IMG/VR virus record: IMGVR_UViG_3300035150_000049
DNA: 64,000 nucleotides
Direction: 5' to 3' (one strand)
Source of the DNA: an uncultured virus (IMG/VR IMGVR_UViG_3300035150_000049)
Lineage: Duplodnaviria; Heunggongvirae; Uroviricota; Caudoviricetes
Numbering within the stretch: position 1 is the stretch's first letter; the number at the start of each line of letters is the position of its first letter. This document shows, piece after piece, positions 1 to 61,397 of the stretch. Made by a program: the position numbers and the translations under genes. The notes below the pieces were generated by a model. The model was not told where the DNA came from. It did not search any database and was given only the letters and a program-made list of their open reading frames with translations.

Positions 1-1948
1 TTTGTGCCCACAGTTGGCCACCATTTATGCATAGGAAGCCAGATGAATGACCTATAGCGTATGAACGAAGTGCATCAATTGCACCGCTTACGTCAGCATA
101 ATAACCATAGGTGCCGCCCGTAGCGACTGCATCACGCGCGGTTATATTTGAATTGATGGAATATGTAGAACAATTAATACTCGTGCTAAACGTTGTTAAA
201 ATTGCGCCGCCGTCAAAACCCACGGCACCACGCGGATTTGTTGCTGATGTAACAAAACTAATATCTTGTGCATCAACAAGGCCAGATCGTAGTGTTAGAA
301 TACATGAATATCCGCTTGCTGAAATAGCACAGTTCGATATTGTTAATAGCGTAGCGTCGGTAGACTCAATTGTCCACGAAGAACCAGAAGCATCAACGTA
401 AAAACCACTCAGTAATATACCGTTGGTTTGACTGGCTATTGTTAGGCCAGACGAGGATATAATTCGGTTTGGTTTGAGCGTTATTGACGCGCCGAAATTC
501 ACTAACCCCGCCGGCCATGCCGCCGCCGTTAAAGTATTATTCGAGACACCCGTGAGCGTAATCTCACTAACACTACTTCCATCCCAGGTAATAATTTTAT
601 CGTCCGCCGCCCACCCGTCGGCACCGAAGTCAGGGTTACCGGCGCTCACAAGTACCGTTAATACGCTGCCGGAAATCGTAAATTGACCACCGCCGCTCGT
701 GGTGCCACCGTTGGTACGTCCGGCGCGATTGTTCGGGACCCCAATGGCAGTCCATATAATTGTGCCATCATTTGTGGTGCCGCCTATCTGCGTCGCCCAG
801 GTAGGTTCCGTGCCGCCACTCGTACCGCCGGTAGTACACATATAGGCTAACCCGTTTGCCGAGGTGGGGCGTACAATGTCGCGCGGGTCAACGCCGCTAT
901 ATGCCGTGGTTGCAGCCCAGGCCCCATAGCTTGTATCAACGCCGTTAACGTAACTCAGACCTGTTAAGTCGCGTGTGTCGCCCTGAATGGTTAGCTGACT
1001 TGCCGACGCGGTCAACAAATCTTCAAAAACCAACGTTTCGGTATACGTGCCGGCATCTACCGCAATGGTACAGTTCGATACAAGTTTTCCACCCTTGAAA
1101 AAATCGTATGCGTCCTGAATAGTCGTGTAGTCGCCGCCCGCCGCTTTGACGGTTTTGGTAATACCATCCAAAAGCCGCACATTGCTACCAAGGCCAACCC
1201 GGTCGTTGATCCATATACGCGCGTCTTCGAGACGATCTTTGTTCGTAATTGTCGTTGCGCCACCGCGCAGCACCCAAAATCGAATTGGCACGAATAAGTC
1301 AATGGCATTATCAAGCGCCTCTTGCCGGTCGGTGAAATCGAGCGGGTCGATATTTTCATCCTGCGCGGTGGATATACTGGACGCTAATTCATTATCCTGA
1401 TTGAGATAAACCAATGCCACTACCCACTCCCCTGCGCCGGGAATGTCACCGGATAAATCAATCAACCCGCCGGGGAATAAAGTATAATTGCCATCGGCGT
1501 CGATATATTTCCACTCTGAAACGCCAACCTCGGTAGTGCTCGCCGTGGCTTGCGTGCCGTCCCCGCCGGTCATGGCGGTACAGTAAAGATACGGCCATTT
1601 CCCGGCGTCGGTCCACATATTTTCTGCCGTCGAAGTATTCCCCAATCCGTCGCCGAACCCGGCTACTACACCACCCTCACGATAGACGCCGACGACCTCA
1701 AGTTGATTATTTTCGTTTCGTTGCAGGATAACCGACACGCCGGCGTAAGACAATGGAATGTTACCGCGTGCATAATGACGAGAAGGCGACGTATATCCAC
1801 CGGCCTGCCTGAACCGGACATACACAAGCTGATTGCTTACCGCTTCATCAACTAATACACGACCGTCTTCGGTTCCCAAAACCCCCTGAATAAAATCCAG
1901 GTTGTTCTGTTTGCGATACTTCGCCGCGATGCGTTCTATCGTGGTCAT
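1..1948 (-). CDS. tail spike/fibre with pectin-lyase-like beta-helix and inserted CBM5/12-like module (3' end runs off the window)
   Basis: Not in the ORF track because there is no stop in the window. Manual translation from ATG 1948, which overlaps the upstream stop as ATGA, gives MTTIERIAAKYRK... It contains the beta-helix cap GGDYTTIQDAY...TIAVDAGTYTETL and the module WAATTAY...VRPTSANGLAYMCTTGGTSGGTEPTWATQIGGTTNDGTIIW. Confidence 0.8.
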   Translation of the reverse strand, partial: MTTIERIAAKYRKQNNLDFIQGVLGTEDGRVLVDEAVSNQLVYVRFRQAGGYTSPSRHYARGNIPLSYAGVSVILQRNENNQLEVVGVYREGGVVAGFGDGLGNTSTAENMWTDAGKWPYLYCTAMTGGDGTQATASTTEVGVSEWKYIDADGNYTLFPGGLIDLSGDIPGAGEWVVALVYLNQDNELASSISTAQDENIDPLDFTDRQEALDNAIDLFVPIRFWVLRGGATTITNKDRLEDARIWINDRVGLGSNVRLLDGITKTVKAAGGDYTTIQDAYDFFKGGKLVSNCTIAVDAGTYTETLVFEDLLTASASQLTIQGDTRDLTGLSYVNGVDTSYGAWAATTAYSGVDPRDIVRPTSANGLAYMCTTGGTSGGTEPTWATQIGGTTNDGTIIWTAIGVPNNRAGRTNGGTTSGGGQFTISGSVLTVLVSAGNPDFGADGWAADDKIITWDGSSVSEITLTGVSNNTLTAAAWPAGLVNFGASITLKPNRIISSSGLTIASQTNGILLSGFYVDASGSSWTIESTDATLLTISNCAISASGYSCILTLRSGLVDAQDISFVTSATNPRGAVGFDGGAILTTFSTSINCSTYSINSNITARDAVATGGTYGYYADVSGAIDALRSYAIGHSSGFLCINGGQLWAQ

Positions 1949-4900
1949 CCCCACACCTCGATTCCACGCATAGCACGGTCACCGTGGTTTGGGCCGTTCA
2001 TGCCGCGTATTGACGCGCCGAAATTCGACGAATACCAAAGATCGTTCGTGCCGCCTGCGCCAAATAGTTGTAAGCCAAGTAAATCACCCTGCCGCATTCG
2101 AACACTCACAGCATTTAAGCCGATTTCGCCCCGGTCATCCCAAGTCGCGCCCGCGTCGATTGAGGTATATAGGTGCGGTGTGATACCAATGGTCATAATG
2201 ACAGCAATAATTGACGAACTCAATTGTGACACCGCGATACCGTTAGCGGTGTATGCGGTAGCGTCAGCGTCAGGATTAATTTCAACAGCAGCAGCGTCGG
2301 CAATTTTCCATAGCGCGTCTCCGCTACCCGTGACACAGCGCGACGCAATATAATAATGCGGCGTGTTATCATTGATATTTTTTGTGGTCGCACCGGGGAT
2401 TTGCCAGAACGGAATCGCAACCATAATACCCTGGCTGAATACCGACGCCGGCGTATTTGTTTCATCGGCGTATGCGCCACCTTCGGTTGTCGTGATACGC
2501 GCCTTGTTGTTACCGCCGCCAATGGCGCTATCGCCGATTTTTATGGCGTCAAAACCGCACGCCGATCCCACGCCCGGCGCGGTCCCGATAGCAACCGCCG
2601 CTGCCCAACTCCCCCCGTCATCACTGCTGTACCGGCTATACGCCGACCCGGTGCCACTGGCGTCGCCGTTTATGTCAACATCAATTGACCCGGAGTTATC
2701 CCCGTAAACGGTATCTTCAAACGTCCACTTCCAGCGCTCGTTATTACCATCAATTTCAATACTATAGGTATGCGTCGCGTTATAAGGGGGGAACTCGAAA
2801 TCTAACGGTGCGTTGCTTGACCAAAAGCCTCCAAATTCTCCCACGTTCCACCTGAAGGCGTTTTGAGTCGCCCAGTTGTCGTCTGAGCGATAAAACGCAT
2901 CCTGCCTACCATTAGCCTCCCACGTGATGGTATTCGAAAAATCCAATGTATAGGTCACGTGCGGCGATGTATATAGCGCTAATTGATCGCCGATGTCGCT
3001 CGTGCCGGGGATGGATAATGATTCATTTATTGCTATCCCGGTCGGAATTTCAGACCGAATAATGTACACGCCTTCATCTGTCAGAACGATGCGTGACCAT
3101 TCGTTTGTGTCTATGGCGTTTTCGGTCCAGTCAACCGGATTTCCGGTGAAATTTTCAGTATACCAAAATTTCGAATTAATCCCATCCCACGTTAAACAAT
3201 ACGCCTCTAGTGAATTTTTTGGGCTTTTAAATTTAAAGTCTTTGATTTCTGCGCTTGTTGGCGAAATCTGTCGGAATGAGGGATTAGTACCCAAGAGATT
3301 TATCGATAGGAATAAGTCGCTTTCGTTCGTCGATATACTCTTACGATCCCAGCAAACAATTGTATTACCGTTCGATGGCGGTCCCACAAAAAGGTCTGGT
3401 TTCGACGGGGGCTTTTGATAAAATGGCGGTACGTACCCAACACTGTTGTTTCTTTGCCACCACGGTTCTAGTGCGAGTTCGGGAAGCGGCGAAAACGGCG
3501 GCAATTCGGGCAAATAATAATCAACGCCAAACGCAGGAATAATAGGTTGTGTCTGCCCGGCAACGCCTTGAGTCTCAAGACGAAATCGAAGTTGTACCGT
3601 CCGGATATTCGTTTCATTGCTAAATGTATGGCTAATTTCTGTAAGCGTCCATCTGTCAGAAGTTGTATAGGTATTGCGCCCCAATGTATCATCAGAGGCA
3701 ACTGTGAATTTAAACCATTCAGAATGCGAGGGCTGCAAAATCCAATACCCGCCATTACAATCAAGCGTCAGTCCGTCGGCGGGATTGACTGCTGCAAAAT
3801 GATCGCCGGTGCGTTGATTTATTTCGGCTTGCGCATTTTCATCAGAAATATCTGCCTCCAGAATTTGTCCCGGTAAATTGCCGATCCCCGGCGCGGCGTC
3901 CTGCGCGCTTCCCGGTGCAATGGACAAAAGCGGCGTAACTTCTTCTGTTGCCGTGTTGAAAGCGCCACCGCTCCCATTGACAATCCCGGTTGATTGCGCA
4001 CCATCGACGCCAATCCCGATATTAATCCAGTCTTTATTAGAGCCGTCGCTCAATACAACCGTAAGTGCGTTACGTTCGGCAGATGTGAGATAATTTGCAG
4101 ACCGCGATACAAAAGACTTACCACGACAATCTAATTCCATGCGCGCATTTACACTGCTCATAATGTAATTGATGGCGCTCCAAAGATTTTGTTCGGCAAC
4201 CGTAAACTCGCGCTCAATATAAGTATCGGTCTTATCATCAAAATTCAATGAATGCGAAGTTAGAAATGTACTGTATTCGGCAAGGACGTATACCACCGAG
4301 CGCCAGGGCGTCATTGTGTCGATTTCGTCCCACGCCGTCGGCGATGTATCATTGATAATCGTAAGAATGGGTGAGTGCAGGCGTTGCAACTGTTGGGAAA
4401 CGCTTTCAATCTCATAAGTCGTGGTTGCATTGATGATATAGTTTTCGTCTTCACGCGCCGCATCGGATTCGGTGCGTAATCTGCCATGAAATTCAACATT
4501 GCCAATGAGCGGGCCTTCATCGCTCTCGGATGGCATCTCGCCATTTGAAAAATGCTCCACTGACCAGATAACGCATTGCTCAAGGTTCAGGCGGCTTTCA
4601 ACGTCGTCAAAAGCTTCTATCGTTGCCGACCACCCGTTTTCAGCAGAACCATTTATAGTCGCGCCGCCGTAGCTATCTTCTGGCAAAAAACCTGATCCGT
4701 GCGCCAACACGGGAATTTGTCGCGTCGTTGTTCTCGCGCCGCTATCGGTCACAATAAGCTGTACATGCCGAAAGCCGACCGGGAAACGATAAGTTACCGC
4801 TGCCGTTGCCGTACTTCCAGCAACAACACTCCCGTCTGGTGACGACCATGCATAAGTCGAAATTGCTGCGCCATCGGTCGCGGCAAAAGCGCCAGCACTA

Positions 4901-5403
4901 AACGCAATTTCTAATGTGTTGCCAATCGTACCATCTACCCAGCCAACATAGATTGAATCTACGTCATAAATTACCGGCGGTAATTGCCGAAACGTTATGT
5001 CCCAGTCAACCAAGCGAACGCCGCCGCTTTCACGACTGAGCTTAGGCAACACTGCATAATCGTCATAAAAAGCAATTTTATCACCGACCTCGATATCACC
5101 GCTCGTTTCATTGATATAAACCGTTGTGCCTGCCGCCGCCTTGCGCGCGCGACCAAAAAAGAACGCCTTTTTGTAGTCACTGCTTTTACTGATACGACAT
5201 ACCATGCCGGCCTTAATGTTTGCCGTGCTACCCGTCGAAGTCGAAACAGTCAACGATGCAAATGAGGTTGTAGACGGTACGGCAGTCACAGAGCCGGTAT
5301 GTACTTCGGTCTGCGGTAAAAACGAAATATACTGCGTAGCGGCATATTTATAATCGCGCAGTTTTGTTTTCTGTCCGGTTGACAGCGCCTCCATCAAGCT
5401 CAT
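1945..5403 (-). CDS. large tail tip/hub protein with C-terminal Asp-box (BNR)-like repeats
   Basis: 1152 aa, positioned after tape measure and the Dit-like gene; Asp-box-like motifs YSSDDGGSW, YTSIDAGATW, YSSNFGAS. Confidence 0.65.
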   Translation of the reverse strand: MSLMEALSTGQKTKLRDYKYAATQYISFLPQTEVHTGSVTAVPSTTSFASLTVSTSTGSTANIKAGMVCRISKSSDYKKAFFFGRARKAAAGTTVYINETSGDIEVGDKIAFYDDYAVLPKLSRESGGVRLVDWDITFRQLPPVIYDVDSIYVGWVDGTIGNTLEIAFSAGAFAATDGAAISTYAWSSPDGSVVAGSTATAAVTYRFPVGFRHVQLIVTDSGARTTTRQIPVLAHGSGFLPEDSYGGATINGSAENGWSATIEAFDDVESRLNLEQCVIWSVEHFSNGEMPSESDEGPLIGNVEFHGRLRTESDAAREDENYIINATTTYEIESVSQQLQRLHSPILTIINDTSPTAWDEIDTMTPWRSVVYVLAEYSTFLTSHSLNFDDKTDTYIEREFTVAEQNLWSAINYIMSSVNARMELDCRGKSFVSRSANYLTSAERNALTVVLSDGSNKDWINIGIGVDGAQSTGIVNGSGGAFNTATEEVTPLLSIAPGSAQDAAPGIGNLPGQILEADISDENAQAEINQRTGDHFAAVNPADGLTLDCNGGYWILQPSHSEWFKFTVASDDTLGRNTYTTSDRWTLTEISHTFSNETNIRTVQLRFRLETQGVAGQTQPIIPAFGVDYYLPELPPFSPLPELALEPWWQRNNSVGYVPPFYQKPPSKPDLFVGPPSNGNTIVCWDRKSISTNESDLFLSINLLGTNPSFRQISPTSAEIKDFKFKSPKNSLEAYCLTWDGINSKFWYTENFTGNPVDWTENAIDTNEWSRIVLTDEGVYIIRSEIPTGIAINESLSIPGTSDIGDQLALYTSPHVTYTLDFSNTITWEANGRQDAFYRSDDNWATQNAFRWNVGEFGGFWSSNAPLDFEFPPYNATHTYSIEIDGNNERWKWTFEDTVYGDNSGSIDVDINGDASGTGSAYSRYSSDDGGSWAAAVAIGTAPGVGSACGFDAIKIGDSAIGGGNNKARITTTEGGAYADETNTPASVFSQGIMVAIPFWQIPGATTKNINDNTPHYYIASRCVTGSGDALWKIADAAAVEINPDADATAYTANGIAVSQLSSSIIAVIMTIGITPHLYTSIDAGATWDDRGEIGLNAVSVRMRQGDLLGLQLFGAGGTNDLWYSSNFGASIRGMNGPNHGDRAMRGIEVWG

Positions 5404-5840
5404 AACGCGACCATCTTTCTAAACTGAATAACATAATTTCGAGAATAACGCCCGACCCAATCCTGCTCACTGAGCTTGGAGAGCCATATCACGGCATTGT
5501 AATTAGCGAATGAATCATCATTGTTATCGGTTGTCGTTCGCACTGTCACCAATCCGCTATATCCGCCGCTACAATAAGTGTCACGTAGATATTTTTCTTG
5601 CGCTTTTGTGACCACCGCCAATTGCCAAGACGTGGCAGGGTAGCCACTAAATTGTTTCTCGCCGCTCGGTTTTACGCGCTGCAAGCCGGGATCATAAAAT
5701 CCATAACTCCTCACAGTACCAAAGGTGCGCGGGTAATCTTCCGCGTCGGCTTGTGTTCCCTCTAATGTCACCAACCCGGCAGCGTTATTGTTCCCCGCGG
5801 CGATTTGATAATTTGCTTGGCGTACCGGCGTCTCTGGCAT
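5400..5840 (-). CDS. putative distal tail protein
   Basis: 146 aa immediately after tape measure; assigned by position only. Confidence 0.45.
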   Translation of the reverse strand: MPETPVRQANYQIAAGNNNAAGLVTLEGTQADAEDYPRTFGTVRSYGFYDPGLQRVKPSGEKQFSGYPATSWQLAVVTKAQEKYLRDTYCSGGYSGLVTVRTTTDNNDDSFANYNAVIWLSKLSEQDWVGRYSRNYVIQFRKMVAL

Positions 5841-8371
5841 TAGCCTAAAATCCTCGACACAATCTCACCCACTGCGCGACCCACTCCGACCGGGCTAACT
5901 TGCGACTGCATGGTGATATTCGTATTGATTTGGTTCTGATTAAAAATTTGCTGCGCGCGATTTGCCAGCCCTTGTAGCGCCGGAAAAAAACTTGCAAACT
6001 GTTGCAGAATATTTTGATTGGCTTGTTGTTGTAATTGTATGCGTTTCCGTGCTGCCTGATTAATGAGTTGTAATTCCTGGTCGGCGGCAGTGCTACGAAT
6101 CTGTAACTCACGTTGCGTTTTTTCGATAAGCAACCGTTCTTCGCGCCGATAGTTCAAGCGCAAATCTTCTAGCGCGCGCTGCCTGTTGATTTCAATTGTT
6201 TCGCGTTCCCGGTCAAACGCAAGTTGTGTATCCTGTAACTGTTGTTCGTATTGCACTAATCGCGCCTGTCGTTCGCGTTCGGCGTTGCGTGCAATGTCCT
6301 GTAATTCCTGGTCGGCGGCTAATTGACGTTCCCCCTGAGCGCGCGTCGCTTCAATGCCAAGCGTTTGTTCTTGAAACGCGGCTTGTCGCCGGGATCGAAA
6401 CAGCGCCGCAAAGTCACGATTAGCAATCAAATCAAGTTCCTCAAATTGTTGTTGTCGGCGAAGGTCTTGTAATTTGTTTGCGTGCTCGCGGAACGCGCGT
6501 GCCTCTTCGCGCTGTATTTCAACCTGTGCGTCCAACCGCTCAAATGCGGCGTCTTGCTCACTAGAAGCAAAGTCCCTGTTCAGGTCGCGCGCCAAATCCT
6601 GGCGATCCTGTTGCAGGCTCCTGAATGCATCTTCGGTATCGCGCGCTATATCGGTTGCAAGATCAACCAAACCATCGGCAAGTTTACGCTGCATATCGCG
6701 ACGTTTATCCGCCGCCTGTGTCTCGATACGGTCAATATCACTTGCGAGTTTCTCATTGGTTGCAAGTGTTTTCTGCGCACGTTCCTCTTCCGCCGCCTGT
6801 AGCTCATTCGTCATTGCTGCACTACGCGCCGCTGTACCCGCGTAGAATTTAAAATCTCCTTCCGCTTCTTTGAGCTTCGCGTTTACTTCTGCAAGTGCGC
6901 TCTGCACTTCTTCTGAGGTCTGATCTAATTCCATTAACGCTGCGCGCTGTTCGCGCAGGGCTTCAATCTGCGCTTGCGCTTGTTCCTGCCCGGCAATACG
7001 CTGCTCGGTTGTCAGGTCTTTGATAATGCGCCCACGCTCAAGTTCGTCATCGGTTGCAGATTGAATATCGCTGATTTGCTGTTTGAGCGCCGCGCTTTCG
7101 GCTTCGCGCGCCGCAATAACGGGTTGAATATCGTTGACCAGCATAGCAAGCGCGGCAGATTCATCATCACGCGCCGTGTTCAATTCATCTATACGCGCGA
7201 TAACATCTTCGTTGGTTTGGTCAAGCTTTTCAAGCTCGGCGAGTTCGGCGTCAATAGCAGAGACTGACTCGCGGCGTTTGATAATTTCATCATTGATAGA
7301 TTGCAGTGTACCGGAGCGGAGAAGTTCGGCGCGGCGCTGTTCGGCGGCGGTAATTTCTTGGATATCAAGCACGCGCTTATTGGTTAATTCGCGCTCTGCA
7401 ATTGCAGCATCGTTCGTGACGGTTGCGCCCTCTCGCAATACCCCCTGTAATGCATCGTACTCTGCTCTAAGGCTTCCTAGTTCATCTTCGCTTGCGGTTA
7501 TCGCATTTGCAAGTTCCTCTTCACGTGTATCGAAAGCACGAATGCCCGCGCCAACGATGCCGCCAAGTGCGCCAAAACTATCTTCTAGGCCTTCGTTTAG
7601 TTGAGAATAGGCGCTTTCTGCACGCGCTAAATTCGCTTCCTCAGCAGCAATGATCTTTTCTAGTTCGTCGGCGCGCGTCTGGGCCTCTTCTGTTGTTAGA
7701 CCCTTCGCCACCTCACGGGTTATATTTGCTTGCGCTTCTATCGTGTCCGCAAGCAGCTTTGCTTGTTCATTCATGGCTTCGGTATACTGACTAATTTGTG
7801 AAGCTGCCGCCACTGCTGCTATACCCGCAACTACAAGTACGGCGGCAAGTCCCGCACCAGAACCGAGTGCTGTTCCTAGAATACCGGCTTTACCGGATGC
7901 TGCTACACTAGATGTTTGGAGCGCCATTATGCTGGTGCGTAAATTGCCGATTCCCTCTACCGCACCAAATATATCAGACCCAAACATGAGCACTTCGGCG
8001 CTTGCCGCATCGAGTGCGCCCGTCAATCCCCCAAGCGCGCTAAGTGCGGTATCGGTGCGCCCCACTAAATCGGCGTCGCCGCCATCTCCGCCGCTTGGTT
8101 TTTTAATTTTATTGAAATCATTCTGTTCATCGACGGCGCGTTGGGCCGCCTTTCCAATTTCAGTATATCTATCTGCTAGCGTGCCACCTTGTTTTGCAAG
8201 ACGATCAAAAATTTGATCTGTCACTTTCGATGATTGTGCAAGTGCGCGGTTTGCATCGGCAACCCTTAGCTGCGCATCTTCGACCGACTGAGCGCCCTGC
8301 AATGTTGTACCCAAAGATGCCCGATCGGTTTCCCATCGTATGCGATTCGTTGCTACACGCTCACTGCTCAC
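5840..8371 (-). CDS. tape measure protein
   Basis: 843 aa, Ala/Gln/Glu-rich coiled coil with Gly/Ala hydrophobic segments; follows the tail chaperones. Confidence 0.85.
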   Translation of the reverse strand: MSSERVATNRIRWETDRASLGTTLQGAQSVEDAQLRVADANRALAQSSKVTDQIFDRLAKQGGTLADRYTEIGKAAQRAVDEQNDFNKIKKPSGGDGGDADLVGRTDTALSALGGLTGALDAASAEVLMFGSDIFGAVEGIGNLRTSIMALQTSSVAASGKAGILGTALGSGAGLAAVLVVAGIAAVAAASQISQYTEAMNEQAKLLADTIEAQANITREVAKGLTTEEAQTRADELEKIIAAEEANLARAESAYSQLNEGLEDSFGALGGIVGAGIRAFDTREEELANAITASEDELGSLRAEYDALQGVLREGATVTNDAAIAERELTNKRVLDIQEITAAEQRRAELLRSGTLQSINDEIIKRRESVSAIDAELAELEKLDQTNEDVIARIDELNTARDDESAALAMLVNDIQPVIAAREAESAALKQQISDIQSATDDELERGRIIKDLTTEQRIAGQEQAQAQIEALREQRAALMELDQTSEEVQSALAEVNAKLKEAEGDFKFYAGTAARSAAMTNELQAAEEERAQKTLATNEKLASDIDRIETQAADKRRDMQRKLADGLVDLATDIARDTEDAFRSLQQDRQDLARDLNRDFASSEQDAAFERLDAQVEIQREEARAFREHANKLQDLRRQQQFEELDLIANRDFAALFRSRRQAAFQEQTLGIEATRAQGERQLAADQELQDIARNAERERQARLVQYEQQLQDTQLAFDRERETIEINRQRALEDLRLNYRREERLLIEKTQRELQIRSTAADQELQLINQAARKRIQLQQQANQNILQQFASFFPALQGLANRAQQIFNQNQINTNITMQSQVSPVGVGRAVGEIVSRILG

Positions 8372-47000: not shown

Positions 47001-47618
47001 TTAAACCCTCGGTAGCGTAATGCCCGTCTGTCCCTGGTATTTACCCGAACGATCCGCATATGAAACATCCGGTCCTTCATCGCCCTGCCAGAATAAAATT
47101 TGTGCTATGCCCTCGTTGGCGTAAACGCGCGCCGGAAGTGGCGTTACATTGGCGACTTCTAGTGTAATGTATCCGTGCCACCCGCTTTCTAGTACCGTCG
47201 TCGGAATTAACACACCCGCGCGGATGTAAGTCGATTTGCACAGCACGACGCCGGTCACGTCGCGCGGCATTTTGAGATATTCGAACGACCGGCTGAGCGC
47301 AAAGCTGTTGGGCGGGATATAGATAAAAACACCGTGATCGTCTTCGTGAAGTTGCGCGTCAATCATCGACCGTTCATCAAGCGCCTTCGGGTTTACCTCG
47401 GCGCAGTGGGCGTTTGTAAAAACCTTGAATTCGTCTGAGGCGCGGATATCGTAGCCGTAGGATGATACGCCGTAAGATATCGCCGCCGGCGGCGCTGGAT
47501 AAGTATAATATCCCGGTGGGGCAGGGTCCCTTTCGCGCACCTGTCGGTCTACGAACGGCTCAATCATGCCGTGCTCGCGTGCCATTTTTTTAATCCAGTG
47601 GTCGGGTTTGATTGTCAT
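47001..47618 (-). CDS. dcd: dCTP deaminase
   Basis: [51 protein letters not shown]. Confidence 0.92.
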
Positions 47619-48085: not shown

Positions 48086-48280
48086 ATGAACAACAAAGCT
48101 TACACCCAAGTACAAACCGGAACACGCGAAAGTTGGAAGCAATTCGGCAACGGTACAGCAATCCCCCAACGACGACGTGAAGTTGTAATCGACATGGAAA
48201 AAGTTCAGCAATTACGCAACGAAGCAAACGAACGATGGATCGAAATGCACGGCGAAATGCAGAACCCGATGCCCTGGTAG
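48086..48280 (+). CDS. small early protein
   Basis: AGGAG RBS; 64 aa; its stop codon overlaps hammerhead stem II. Confidence 0.65.
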   Translation: MNNKAYTQVQTGTRESWKQFGNGTAIPQRRREVVIDMEKVQQLRNEANERWIEMHGEMQNPMPW

Positions 48281-48334
48281 CGAAACGCCCACACGGGCGT
48301 CTGCGGGAACTAGCCGCCCCGCACTGATGAGCTA
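48274..48334 (+). ncRNA. type II hammerhead ribozyme
   Basis: UAGC GAAA CGCCC ACAC GGGCG UC^ UGCGGG AACUAGCCGC CCCGCA CUGAUGA GCUA: complete core, three paired stems, GUC cleavage triplet ending at 48301. Confidence 0.92.
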
Positions 48335-48481
48335 GGCCGAGTACCTTAAAAATCAAATAACCGACAGCCCGCCGCGCAAATCGGCGTACTCGAAGCTGAG
48401 GGGCGACAATCGGTAGATGACAAAACGCGACTGACCGCACAGTCGATTGTGACGATAATGAAGCATACAGGAGATAAGATC

Positions 48482-48739
48482 ATGCCAGTTGATAAACGAT
48501 ACGGCGGGAGCAAATGGGACAAATTTATTCATCCCTACGAAGACAAAGACGAGGTTACGCACTATGCAGTAGCACAACGGAATGAAACAACCGGGCAGTA
48601 TATCGCGCCGCTAGACCGCGCGACCCAACAACTAACGGGGTGTTCATCCGAGTTCGCAACCAATGCAGCCGGTATCGGCGGTGGATTATCACTAGATGAA
48701 GCGCGTCGGCGCGCACGCTACTTGTATCGTGGAATCTAG
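48482..48739 (+). CDS. small early protein
   Basis: AGGAG RBS before MPVDKRYGG. Confidence 0.65.
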   Translation: MPVDKRYGGSKWDKFIHPYEDKDEVTHYAVAQRNETTGQYIAPLDRATQQLTGCSSEFATNAAGIGGGLSLDEARRRARYLYRGI

Positions 48740-48945
48740 TCGAAACGCCCGGCCTAAGCCGGGCGCATGACCCGTAAGCTCACCGCATCCACGCGGCGCG
48801 GGTTGGGTAACGCAGAGTGTGAGCGACACATCACCCGGCGCGGCGTTCCGGCTAAGGCTAGGACGTTCGGGCGGAAGGGATGGCGAGCCTGTCGGTTGAC
48901 GGCGAGGGGACCTGGGTGGGTGTAACCCCAGGCGGGTGATGAGAC
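48739..48945 (+). ncRNA. unclassified structured RNA with hammerhead-like ends
   Basis: GUC GAAA CGCCCGGC CUAA GCCGGGCG ... GUGAUGA GAC with several internal helices. Confidence 0.5.
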
Positions 48946-49763
48946 AGATCAAATAAGGGGAAAAATAAAATGGATTACTTGGACAAAGACCTGATCGCCC
49001 TGGCGCGCCGGATGAAGGCGTCAGAACTAATTTCGTCGGTCGCTCTTAAGGGCGCGGGAATGGGCGACCAGCAAAACAATATATGTGTGTTTGATACACT
49101 TTCGCCGCTGGCGGGCATAATGAGATTTATCCTTGACTGCGAGTGGTTTTATCCTGATGCGCGCGAACGACTGCGCGTACTACTGGAGGAGATAGAATGA
49201 CCGAGCTTATCAATAAAATCCCGAACGACGGAGCAGAGTGTCGGGTCTACCCCGAACACGGCAATGCCTGCGCCGCCGTTCTCGTTGTCACCGGTACGAC
49301 GTTAACAAAGGCGCGCGAGGGCTTCTATCACGAAGTTCTCGTGGGCAAACTACACAAACTAGCCGAGTGCCCGGCGTGGCTGGGCTTTTTCATCGAGGCT
49401 CAATACCCGCAAGCATACCGCTACATCACGAGCGGTGAGCGGTTGCACGATGCGTTTAGGGCATGGGAGGGCTTAAATGTTGTACCCCGTTGATGCACAC
49501 GGACACCATAACGACGCGCAGTATTGGCCCCAAGAACCCATGTGGCTCGTTGCAGCGTGGCGATTAAACCGCGCGGCTGCGCGTTTTTTCGATCTTAAAA
49601 TGAACGAACTACTCTCGTTGCCGTTCGAGGATCCGATAAGGGCATCCCTTGAGCACGTCGGCTTAGCCGCTGACGCCGAATCAGGCGACTTTATGAAGTG
49701 GTGTTTTTACACCGACATCGCAGAAAGCTTAGAGAAAATCATAGAATTAAAGGAGAAAAGATT

Positions 49764-51674: not shown

Positions 51675-51746
51675 GCCGGCGTAGCTCAAGAGGTAGAGCA
51701 ACTGGCTTCCAACCAGAAAACGCGGGTTCGAGTCCCGCCGCCGGCT
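51675..51746 (+). tRNA. tRNA-Gly(TCC), no encoded CCA
   Basis: Acceptor GCCGGCG/CGCCGGC, D arm GCTC/GAGC, anticodon loop CT-TCC-AA, T arm GCGGG TTCGAGT CCCGC, discriminator U. Confidence 0.9.
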
Positions 51747-52052: not shown

Positions 52053-52117
52053 TGGCTGACGGGGTACGTCGATGGGACGCAGGAATGCGCAAGCGGGTTC
52101 GACTCCCGCCCCAGCCA
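52053..52117 (+). ncRNA. tRNA-like element (T arm plus acceptor-like stem, no normal anticodon loop)
   Basis: TGGCTG...CAGCCA outer stem; GCGGG TTCGACT CCCGC; CGCA GGAA TGCG hairpin. Confidence 0.55.
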
Positions 52118-58479: not shown

Positions 58480-59481
58480 ATGCCAATCGTAAATATCGGA
58501 GTTGACGACGGCAACGTGCGTCGGAAACTCATTACCAAAAAGCACAAACTAGATACGCCGGTCGGACTGAGCCTTGTCCGGCGCGAAGGCGGTAGAGGAG
58601 ACCTCGAAGTCGCTCAAGCTGCCGGCGATGTCATTACGTGGCGCAATGGCTCGCAGTGGACACCCGAACCGTCCGCCAGTGCCTCGACCGAAATGGCGCG
58701 CTTCACACACTGGCCGGAAGCGATGAAAATCAGCTTCCTGTATTCGCTTTCGCGTGTGCCGACCGAGACTAAATCGAAGCGCTTCCGGGTGATGATCGGC
58801 GCACCGCTCGACGCATTGAACGATGCTGAGGCCGTGCGCAAGGCGGCACGCGAGGAGCTTTGTGGACTGTACACCTTTGAAGTGAACGGCGAACCTCAGA
58901 GTATCGAAATCGCGGATGCTTATATTGCGTCGCAGCCGAAGGCGGCGCTCGTGACGACACCAGGATTTAAGAATAAGCGCGTGTTTTTAGCCGACTGGGG
59001 TTTCGTGACCGGCCATTCAGTCGGTTACGATGAAGCGAGAAAGCAGGACGGGCAATCGGCGTTCATCGACGCTGTGACCGGATGGCGGAGGGTCGGGGCG
59101 TACAGAGCCGCTGACGAACTCTCCAACTACCTGAACGGCGTGTACACGAACTACGGCCTGAGCAAGATCGTTAACATCCATGAGGCCGACCAAATCATTC
59201 TCGGTGCGCGGCGCTTAGAGGTTCCGAACGGCGCGATGACCGAGGCGACCGAGTTCGTTAAGGTACTCAAGGCGCAGAACTTTAACGCCGGCGTCGAGTT
59301 CTTCAATGCGCAAATGGCACACATGGTTCCAGAGATTATTCGGTTCGTCGGCGGAACGACCGTAAGGTACGAACAGCAAATCCGGGCGCGGTGGAAGTCG
59401 TTGGTCAGCATTCCAGAAGACCCGATCTTTAGTGTAGCGCAGGGGTTGCTGGTGCTCGCCAATAGTTATTGGCGGGATTAA
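58480..59481 (+). CDS. ParM/StbA-like actin-fold ATPase
   Basis: Phosphate-1 IGVDDGN, SQP, phosphate-2 LADWGFVT, adenosine FVGG, connect-2 VAQGL. Confidence 0.78.
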   Translation: MPIVNIGVDDGNVRRKLITKKHKLDTPVGLSLVRREGGRGDLEVAQAAGDVITWRNGSQWTPEPSASASTEMARFTHWPEAMKISFLYSLSRVPTETKSKRFRVMIGAPLDALNDAEAVRKAAREELCGLYTFEVNGEPQSIEIADAYIASQPKAALVTTPGFKNKRVFLADWGFVTGHSVGYDEARKQDGQSAFIDAVTGWRRVGAYRAADELSNYLNGVYTNYGLSKIVNIHEADQIILGARRLEVPNGAMTEATEFVKVLKAQNFNAGVEFFNAQMAHMVPEIIRFVGGTTVRYEQQIRARWKSLVSIPEDPIFSVAQGLLVLANSYWRD

Positions 59482-59562
59482 GACAAAAGTTGTGATACAA
59501 TACTGAGGGAAATTAAGCGCAGCCCAAAGGCAGCTGCGCGTAGAGAGGTCATCGACGTTCAA

Positions 59563-60975
59563 ATGACCACACGAAGAATTTTAGCACAAATCATAATCAC
59601 GTGCTCTACTGCATGTATCTTAATTTTCTTACTCACCGGCTGCGATGCAATGCAGCCGGCGGATCAGGCTGTTGTCTACGCCACGGTCCCGTCGGGCGCA
59701 CTTGCGCCGGGTATCGAGGCCGACAACGCCATGAGTACGGCCCAAGCGCTCGCCTGGGTTGCGACGCAAGATGCTATCGATAAACAGAACACCGTCAGCG
59801 CTTCGGATGCGCTGGCGGCTCAGGCGGCGCAAGCTCAGGTGCAGGCGACGCAAGCCGCCGCCGATGCCACACTGAAAGCCGAGGAGCGCAGCGCTGCCGC
59901 CACGCTCCAGGTTGAGCGGTACAATGCGGATGCTACGCAGCAGGCCGTGAGCGTAAACATGACCGCGACGGCGGGCAGTATCGCGCTACACGGTAGAGAA
60001 CTGGAAATCACACAGACGGCGATTATCGTCACGCTCGACGGGGCAGAAGCAAATATCAAATCCGCCGAGGCTAGGCAAGCCGAAGTGGATGCCGACCAAG
60101 CGGCTAAAGTCGCTCAGCAGGCAGATATCGACCGCCAAACCGATTACATCTTTAAGTTGGTTGGCGGGATACTGTTAGTCGCCGTAGTTTTTAGCGCGTT
60201 CTTGGTTGCGCTTCTGTATGGCGCTCGCTGGCTCAGCGTGATTATCGCCATCGATGTACGCCGGCGTATGATTCTCGAAGAGCTTGGCCTTCAATACGAC
60301 AACAACGCCGGCAAATGGGTGCCGCTGCCGGGGCATGATTGGCCGGCGCTTCCTGCGCCTGAGCCTGAACCAGAACCGGAGCGTGAGATTACCATTGCCG
60401 GGCGCGTGTACACGCAAGAGGACCTGGAGGACGCCGAGAAAGCGCGGCAGGAGCAAGCACACCGTACCGCATGGCGCAATGCAGCGATTGCGTTTCTGCG
60501 GTGGGGTGAGTATGAAGTTGATGACGAACCGATAGGGTACTCGCGCGCCCGCATGACCGCTCACGCCGGCGTAACCGATCCGACCTGGCGCACCATGACG
60601 AAATGGCTCGCCGAGATGGGATTCATGTATCAACCGCGAACTGGCGCGGCGTACACGTTGACACTGAATGACGCAGGGGAACACATGACCGTTTCGCAAA
60701 TTATCCAGAGTCCAAAGTGGGCGACTTCTTACGACTATCCGAAGGGTGAAATCATGTCCATCGAGCCGCCGAAAACGCAAAAATCTCTAGACCCAACCCA
60801 ACCCGCGCACCCGGTTTCAACCGGGGGAGACCGGGTTCAACCCGCCAACCCGCCCGAAAACGGCGCTTTTGTCGTCGGGACTGACGAAAATGGCAGGCGA
60901 ACAGTGCGACGTTGGGGCGGCATGGGGCCGCCGGGTAGCTACGACGCGCAGATAGACGAACTCTGCACAGAGTAA
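59563..60975 (+). CDS. lipoprotein/membrane protein with Ala-Thr-Gln-rich stalk, TM helix and cytoplasmic domain
   Basis: Lipobox LLTGC; ATQAAADAT-type repeats; TM segment LVGGILLVAVVFSAFLVALLY. Confidence 0.7.
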   Translation: MTTRRILAQIIITCSTACILIFLLTGCDAMQPADQAVVYATVPSGALAPGIEADNAMSTAQALAWVATQDAIDKQNTVSASDALAAQAAQAQVQATQAAADATLKAEERSAAATLQVERYNADATQQAVSVNMTATAGSIALHGRELEITQTAIIVTLDGAEANIKSAEARQAEVDADQAAKVAQQADIDRQTDYIFKLVGGILLVAVVFSAFLVALLYGARWLSVIIAIDVRRRMILEELGLQYDNNAGKWVPLPGHDWPALPAPEPEPEPEREITIAGRVYTQEDLEDAEKARQEQAHRTAWRNAAIAFLRWGEYEVDDEPIGYSRARMTAHAGVTDPTWRTMTKWLAEMGFMYQPRTGAAYTLTLNDAGEHMTVSQIIQSPKWATSYDYPKGEIMSIEPPKTQKSLDPTQPAHPVSTGGDRVQPANPPENGAFVVGTDENGRRTVRRWGGMGPPGSYDAQIDELCTE

Positions 60976-60979
60976 AAAG

Positions 60980-61013
60980 GGCCGCGCTCGAAAGGGCGCG
61001 GTTTTCGTTTTTC
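60980..61013 (+). terminator. intrinsic terminator
   Basis: GGCCGCGCTC GAAA GGGCGCGGTT TTCGTTTTT. Confidence 0.65.
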
Positions 61014-61058
61014 GGGTTTGCTGACACTTTGCGTATCGTGAAAGCGCTATTTTGTCTT

Positions 61059-61087
61059 TTGCTAAGAAAAGCAAAAAATGGTATAAT
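61059..61087 (+). promoter_or_regulatory. sigma70 promoter
   Basis: TTGCTA-17-TATAAT with extended TG. Confidence 0.7.
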
Positions 61088-61397
61088 GGAGGCGGTGATA
61101 GAAAGCATGGGCGCAAGCCCCTACCCTACTGAGGTACAGCAATGACGATTGAAGCTAACTATCAAAAAGTGTGCCGCGTGATGTCTGTGGACATCGCGCG
61201 CACCGAAGCAAAATTAAATGCGCTTAGAGTTGATCTTGAAGACGCACAAACGTCGCCGACCTACGCGCATTATCTAGCGTGGTATTTCGATAATGTGATC
61301 GAGGACTACCATAAAGATGGTTTTTACTATGGCCCGCGCTTATCTTGCGGAAAATTTGAGCGGCGGGGTGCTCCCCCGCCATACGAGCTTGGGGTAT

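Follow-up and report, generated by a model that had tools for sequence, protein, structure and literature searches.

A candidate minimal HDV-like ribozyme between small genes of an uncultured phage

The first minimal HDV-like forms are said to be those of Riccitelli et al. from 2014. Among the theta ribozymes of Caudoviricetes, minimal representatives lack P4 and have an L4 of 5-8 nt that runs directly into J4/2, with the cleavage site at G1 and J4/2 opening with the catalytic cytosine (Kienbeck 2024, PMC10879173). Theta ribozymes that are not associated with tRNAs are described in the same report as occurring in phage non-coding regions, with a role that it gives as unknown; more than 96% of 526 such hits lie in sense with the nearest gene, and gut phages account for more than 80% of the published set. 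A second class of small self-cleaving RNA, the hammerhead, has been reported from phage and prophage operons, in which ribozymes flank single genes and are proposed to process long transcripts into single-gene RNAs (Perreault 2011, PMC3088659).

We analysed a stretch of 64,000 nucleotides (hereafter the window) from an uncultured member of the Caudoviricetes. The window is a whole phage genome or most of one, with a G+C content of 52% and a wealth of small ORFs without Pfam or PHROG families. An earlier note had singled out the interval 48739-48945 as a single self-cleaving RNA of ~200 nt with hammerhead-like ends, an altered core and a large inserted domain. The best explanation of this interval is a composite intergenic region within a phage early operon, comprising three separate parts: a leader hairpin (48740-48768), a ribozyme motif (48769-48824) and an element that we call S (48826-48945). 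These parts and the surrounding features are as follows.

47001-47618, minus strand: dCTP deaminase gene (Pfam DCD, E 4.8e-28; PHROG 1663)
48278-48341, plus strand: type II hammerhead ribozyme (Rfam RF02276)
48482-48739, plus strand: gene A, a small cassette-specific ORF of 85 aa (ORF list; UAG stop at 48737-39)
48740-48768, plus strand: leader hairpin region with UCGAAAC, an 8-bp GC hairpin and CAU (sequence and fold)
48768-48769, plus strand: predicted self-cleavage site U48768/G48769, 5' of G1 of P1 (from the HDV-like layout)
48769-48824, plus strand: candidate minimal P4-less HDV-like / theta-type ribozyme motif, 56 nt (descriptor match and pair list)
48826-48945, plus strand: element S, a structured RNA or 5'-UTR element (fold, and conservation in the nearest relative, G001)
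48970-49200, plus strand: downstream ORF of 76 aa, the first gene after S (ORF list; RBS-like AAGGGG at 48955-60)
51675-51746: single tRNA (Rfam gathering scan; inspection of the alignment by eye gives anticodon UCC, Gly)

A promoter-like site is located at 48015-43, and no terminator-like site is found on the plus strand between it and 49369. An Rfam scan of the window at gathering thresholds returns the tRNA and the type II hammerhead and nothing else, and an E-value scan of the whole window gives 10 matches with no additional ribozyme among them.

The 56 nt from 48769 to 48824 can be arranged in the order P1-J1/2-P2-P3-L3-P3'-P1'-P1.1'-L4-J4/2-P2', a nested double pseudoknot without P4, and we put the probability at about 0.65 that they constitute a minimal HDV-like / theta-type self-cleaving ribozyme, which would cut co-transcriptionally at 48768|48769. 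P1 joins 48769-75 to 48798-804 through seven of seven pairs (GU, AU, CG, CG, CG, GC and UG, two of them G.U), and G48769 pairs with U48804, such that the G at +1 opens P1 as G.U. A J1/2 of AA (48776-77) leads into P2 (48778-83 with 48819-24), which comprises six Watson-Crick pairs, or six of the seven in the P2 of the descriptor used in our searches. P3 (48785-87 with 48795-97) has two standard pairs out of three, with an A48787.G48795 mismatch at the loop-closing position, and the L3 that it encloses (48788-94) reads UCCACGC and fits U-CC-NCGY. C48789 and C48790 of this loop would form P1.1 with G48806 and G48805, respectively (two of two CG pairs), the GG standing directly after P1'. L4 (48807-12) is GUAACG and J4/2 (48813-17) is CAGAG, with C48813 in its first position as the candidate catalytic residue. 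The motif is intergenic, lies on the sense strand relative to both flanking ORFs and ends 1-2 nt before the start of S.

This layout absorbs much of what had been described as a domain inserted into a hammerhead. The helices GACCCG/CGGGUU (48769-74/48799-804) and CCGC/GCGG (48783-86/48793-96) are present, as parts of the ribozyme's P1 and P3 and not of a hammerhead insert, and the strings of a suspected GCUCA/UGAGC pseudoknot (48778-82/48820-24) exist and belong to P2. Also present are GUGU/ACAC (48817-20/48826-29), CAUCACCCG/CGGGUGAUG (48829-37/48933-41) and CCUGGG/CCCAGG (48911-16/48927-32). The proposal of a self-cleaving RNA thus survives in part: there is a ribozyme motif, which takes in three of the helices of the earlier note, but it is confined to 48769-48824 and would be of a known class, neither a hammerhead variant nor a new class.

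The motif is like the theta ribozymes of Caudoviricetes in its P4-less nested double pseudoknot and domain lengths, in its L3 (U-CC-NCGY), L4 (GUAACG) and J4/2 (CAGAG), and in its phage host, non-coding position and sense orientation (Kienbeck 2024, PMC10879173). Among the 7,704 non-tRNA theta rows published with that report, GUAACG occurs as L4 1,027 times and CAGAG as J4/2 14 times, and the two are combined in two rows, 943 and 1416. The motif differs in its third P3 pair, which is A.G in the window whereas every published row considered here has three standard pairs; in not being adjacent to a tRNA, the sole tRNA lying at 51675-51746 with no HDV-like motif beside it by the descriptor; and in being preceded by a hammerhead stem III-like hairpin. 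GCA is not used as a P3 strand in any of the 7,704 published rows, all five of its occurrences being J1/2. Since a P3 with GCA and an A.G mismatch falls outside the published set, the published descriptor would not retrieve 48769-48824. Judged by its sequence, the motif adds one slightly irregular example to a known class (minimal HDV-like / theta-type) and does not found a new one.

Our own descriptor was built from the published theta ribozyme domain layout (Kienbeck 2024, PMC10879173, supplementary file 6). Its 5' half consists of a P1 of 6-7 nt starting with G, a J1/2 of 1-3, a P2 of 7, a P3 of 3 and U-CC-NCGY, its 3' half of P3', P1', GG, an L4 of 5-8, a J4/2 of C-N-R-A(+N) and P2', and one mismatch is tolerated in each of P2 and P3. 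It was drafted with the candidate and the paper's layout already known, and its two relaxations were picked to let the candidate through; the simulations were run with this relaxed version. Searched against both strands of the window, the descriptor has one match, 48769-48824(+), and it has none when it is set to require A, G or U at the catalytic position. No match was obtained in 600 simulated 64-kb windows, in 500 windows of local composition, in 6,550 further simulated windows searched with the catalytic position open to all four letters (7,650 windows overall), in 64 real loci (150,360 bases) or in G001.

These controls bear on whether there is a ribozyme at all, or whether GC-rich intergenic hairpins, terminator-like or protein-binding, mimic the HDV-like helices by chance. 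Such mimicry could draw on a near-identical CGAAAC plus hairpin in an unrelated contig (L065), between apparently convergent genes, and on the fact that the generic combination of CGAAA and a hairpin is common, with 20 occurrences against 12.9 expected. We consider it highly improbable given that the descriptor matches neither any of the 7,650 simulated windows nor any part of the 150 kb of real loci, that two independent Rfam HDV models settle on the same register, and that no plus-strand terminator-like site is called in the region.

Homologues of the motif were sought in several ways. A blastn 'distant' search with 48700-48960 gave no match in GenBank phages, a 15-mer covering P1'/P1.1 gave 40 matches in viral contigs, none of them like the motif, and a pattern running from L3 to L4 gave none in the same contigs. 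As no motif homologue was found in GenBank phages or viral contigs, and G001 is without the motif, there is no covariation to draw on in P1, P2 or P3.

The two Rfam models were compared with the region in an E-value search of 901 nt against 4,227 families, in which RF00094 (HDV_ribozyme) scores 24.5 bits (E 0.36) against a gathering score of 50 and RF02682 (HDV-F-prausnitzii) scores 21.1 bits (E 0.22) against a gathering score of 44. Although both are well under gathering, they agree on one P1/P3 register, in which the P1, P3, L3 and GGG-UAAC segments align with the window motif. Both models include P4, which the window motif is without, and cannot score pseudoknots. Because they expect a P4 hairpin, they put J4/2 on GGCUAA at 48850-55. 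We rejected this placement: only 4-bp P2 candidates are available from there, and GGCUAA is the UAAG-loop tip of the S hairpin H1, which is kept in G001. P4-containing covariance models would in this way misread P4-less HDV-like ribozymes, and such motifs are therefore easily mistaken for novelty. The earlier note had conceded that the RNA would not be novel if it matched a known family, and in substance the HDV-like layout is such a match, with Rfam scores that stay below gathering.

The A.G mismatch in P3 lowers the odds of full activity, and a competing nested register that uses CCGC/GCGG is the more stable in the nearest-neighbour model (-14.4 vs -8.3 kcal/mol) and would cost the G of L3 and one P2 pair. 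Mismatch and competing register alike are what would be expected of a catalytically dead or very slow motif, a decaying ribozyme carried on a swapped gene cassette in a region that now holds just intergenic hairpins. The same could be said of a P3 spelling missing from the 7,704 published rows, of a motif that is dispensable in G001 and of the failure to find homologues that would show selection. We nevertheless think such decay unlikely, since the remaining defining positions are intact (the G.U opening, UCC...CG in L3, the GG of P1.1 and the C of J4/2), since decay would predict several lesions where one is seen, and since the motif stops 1-2 nt before the S junction and so was left untruncated by the cassette exchange.

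The strings from which a hammerhead had been proposed are all present, namely the UAG stop (48737-39), CGAAACGCCC (48741-50), GCA (48765-67) and GUGAUGAGAC (48936-45), and the perfect stem III-like hairpin after the stop is real (8 bp, z -3.41). Positions C3 and U16.1 of the hammerhead are essential. Set against G12-A13-A14, the interval has GAAA and the stem III hairpin; at A15.1-U16.1/H17 it has C48766 at 16.1 and GCA, not GUH; and for the core C3-U4-G5-A6-N7-G8-A9 it has G for C3 in the 7-nt register, no stem I following and no CUGAUGA box. Natural covariation of C3-G8 is reported only as U3-A8 (Perreault 2011, PMC3088659), and G8 is unchanged here. The supposed 3' hammerhead end fares no better. 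Read as positions 3-9, G48936-A48942 is out of register, as the preceding CGG does not pair with what follows the supposed cleavage site, and taking ACCCG/CGGGU as stem I leaves only GAUGA of the 7-nt core. This end lies in the closing stem of S and is GAUAA in G001, from which the entire 5' half of the supposed hammerhead is missing, and the core strands are thus not conserved.

The claim of a single ~200-nt RNA also fails on folding, as the 215-nt stretch folds no better than its shuffles on the plus strand (z -0.93, 32/200 as good). Rfam finds no hammerhead model for it at E <= 10, and across 48200-49100 the only hammerhead match at that level is 48278-48341, which also holds the one copy of CTGATGAG in the window. 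Even granting that the 5' end copies CGAAAC and a stem-III-like hairpin after UAG, and that the GAC of GAUGA-GAC near the 3' end could pair with GUC, a hammerhead variant spanning 48739-48945 with an altered core and a stem I insert, or a new class derived from one, is exceedingly improbable, the 'inserted domain' being accounted for by a known ribozyme type and S.

The type II hammerhead at 48278-48341 scores 39.4 bits with RF02276 against a gathering score of 37, is expected to cut after GUC at 48301|48302 and is kept in G001 at 41 bits (L005 938-1000). It lies 460 nt upstream of the HDV-like motif in the same transcription direction, and the two bracket gene A, a single swappable gene. The HDV-like motif takes the same slot as the type II hammerheads of phage operons, right after a stop codon between small genes (Perreault 2011, PMC3088659), and differs from them in that its cut would come from another ribozyme class.

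The stable hairpin at 48746-65, which lies just 3' of the stop codon of gene A, precedes the 56-nt motif. If 48769-48824 is indeed a self-cleaving HDV-like ribozyme, we predict that it would fold during polycistronic transcription, with C48813 catalysing attack by the 2'-OH of U48768 and the chain being cut at 48768|48769. The gene A message would then have the hairpin at its 3' end, terminating in a 2',3'-cyclic phosphate, and the downstream message would carry a 5'-OH on the folded ribozyme, behind which S and the next genes would come. Cut by both the hammerhead and the HDV-like motif, the transcript would yield gene A on an RNA of its own, ~467 nt long (48302-48768). This putative self-cleavage role matches the one proposed for ribozymes that flank prophage genes (Perreault 2011, PMC3088659), and the locus would be one more case, with an unusual P3, of phage operons punctuated by interchangeable small self-cleaving RNA classes. 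End-to-end pairing of the would-be excised gene A RNA is not above chance (205/500 shuffles as good).

The hairpin of the leader (48746-53/48758-65, loop CUAA) has a folding energy of -18 kcal/mol, and 1/200 shuffles is as good. The window's type II hammerhead carries CGAAACGCCC and a GC hairpin as the leader does, and this exact 10-mer has two copies in the 64-kb window, at 48281 in the hammerhead and at 48741-50 in the leader, both just 3' of a UAG. Kinship is suggested by the common 10-mer, the hairpin and the place behind a UAG, and at roughly even odds the leader may be a relative of a type II hammerhead's 5' third, with the cutting module then exchanged and the hairpin kept. The case is not a strong one because the generic pattern turns up often and without enrichment (400 simulated windows average 12.9 copies, and the window has 20) and because a near-identical hairpin is found in a convergent-gene, terminator-like setting. 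The latter is the one match of the hairpin pattern in viral contigs, in an unrelated phage contig (L065). At 398-430 of that contig, GCGAAAC and the near-identical GC hairpin come directly after a TGA stop, between apparently convergent genes, and on the opposite strand the hairpin is followed by UUUCG and is terminator-like.

A class swap in a fixed slot would go further than kinship of the leaders. It would mean that the 5' third of a hammerhead (stem II strand, GAAA and stem III) survives and that the 3' catalytic part has been replaced by the HDV-like ribozyme, cutting one nucleotide further, a history that we regard as quite unlikely. If it were true, the upstream message would keep the same 3'-terminal hairpin whichever fold cuts, and two ribozyme classes would release the ~467-nt gene A RNA with 5'-OH and 2',3'-cyclic phosphate ends. 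Such ends are substrates for RtcB-type ligases, making a circular message conceivable.

Gene A has no Pfam or PHROG family and is absent from G001, where a different 61-aa ORF is in its position. Besides the window's own sequence, a protein search returned one relative (P0002, 55% identity, encoded in 15 contigs), a search of the viral contigs returned none, and alignment to metagenome contigs gave seven loci at 43-46% identity. At these seven loci the sequence immediately 3' of gene A is another gene or a terminator-like hairpin and not a ribozyme (Rfam gave six weak matches, none to a ribozyme). The relatives (L051-L057) are 78-106 aa long and share a conserved YAVA..NE and LTGC..E motif and an RRARYLF tail, with no known family; their downstream neighbours vary from locus to locus. 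The 76-aa protein encoded downstream of S has a 91% identical counterpart in G001, which is its sole match in viral contigs, and is confined to this lineage in our searches. A 510-aa protein has no relatives in the viral contigs.

G001 (locus L005), the nearest relative, is a virus record of 61 kb bearing terminal repeats, and it matches the window in blocks of ~77-98% identity interrupted by swapped cassettes. The region from the ATG of gene A through 48825 is replaced in it, and of the interval 48739-48945 it retains only 48826-48945 (L005 1355-1475), which there abuts the UAA stop of another small ORF. Twice, the two phages become alignable again past a swapped gene precisely at a structured RNA, at 48279 for the hammerhead and 48826 for S, a pattern that fits ordinary cassette exchange at conserved intergenic sequence. 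The ORF preceding the hammerhead (48086-48280) differs between the window and G001, and it is with the ribozyme's first base (48279) that the two genomes begin to match.

S is retained alone in G001 and can therefore be considered an independent unit, with the 5' 87 nt of the interval travelling with gene A. It is conserved above the adjacent genes, 112 of 120 positions (93%) being identical between the window and G001 compared with 202/231 (87%) and 211/272 (78%) for the next two ORFs. Its closing stem pairs 48829/30-37 with 48933-40/41 and encloses three hairpins, H1 (48838-72, with the UAAG loop at 48853-56), H2 (48887-903) and H3 (48911-32). The fold has a z of -4.62 in G001 (0/200 shuffles as good) and -1.88 in the window (11/200), and the two-sequence consensus comprises 35 pairs, four with one-sided pair-preserving changes and none with two-sided ones, so that the changes support the fold weakly. 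A 1-nt indel between the window and G001 breaks reading frames across S. A 52-aa ORF at 48767-48925 and an 86-aa ORF on the minus strand were rejected as genes, their frames being shifted by this indel in a relative that is 93% identical.

The strands of S also resemble those of the ribozyme, with near-repeats on the 5' side (GACCCG and CACCCG) and on the 3' side (CGGGUU and CGGGUG), and in the nested minimum free energy fold of the full stretch 48770-74 is paired to 48933-37 and P2 stays formed. One could imagine from this a ribozyme switch in which GACCCG (48769-74) pairs either with 48799-804 or with the CGGGU strand of S (48933-37), S tuning cleavage. S, however, folds alone in G001 without a ribozyme (z -4.62), and transcription would have finished the ribozyme 110 nt before reaching the competing strand, an order that would favour cutting first; with no comparative support besides, we rate such a switch as very unlikely. 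The preferred reading keeps the HDV-like ribozyme and S as separate units.

S has no match to any Rfam family. A 20-mer and a gapped pattern from S retrieve only G001 from the viral contigs, and six matches of the gapped pattern in genome contigs are all unrelated by eye. S is thus the unexplained item of the locus, 120 nt long, strongly folded, conserved above its neighbouring genes and without a family. Our guess is that it is a 5'-UTR structure with a stabilising or processing function; less probably, it could be a further, uncatalogued RNA-processing element, and in G001 it occupies the slot after the stop codon that ribozymes fill elsewhere.

Some smaller features of the two phages are of note. 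S contains a 19-codon ORF (ATG-TGA, 48880-48939), the G001 copy of which has one synonymous and one Val/Ala change; a Shine-Dalgarno-like GGAAGGG abuts its ATG with no spacing, and the ORF may well be due to chance. The leader from the hammerhead to the start codon is otherwise conserved in G001 and has a 28-nt insertion there (L005 ~1084-1111 vs window 48425-48430). The alignment of window positions 726-7350 wraps around the ends of G001 (1-4277 and 58815-61289), and the window apparently spans the genome end or terminal-repeat region of a phage of ~61-64 kb. Finally, 350 nt downstream of the tRNA, 17 nt at 52093-52109 weakly match the tmRNA model at its 3' end (16.6 bits, E 0.012).
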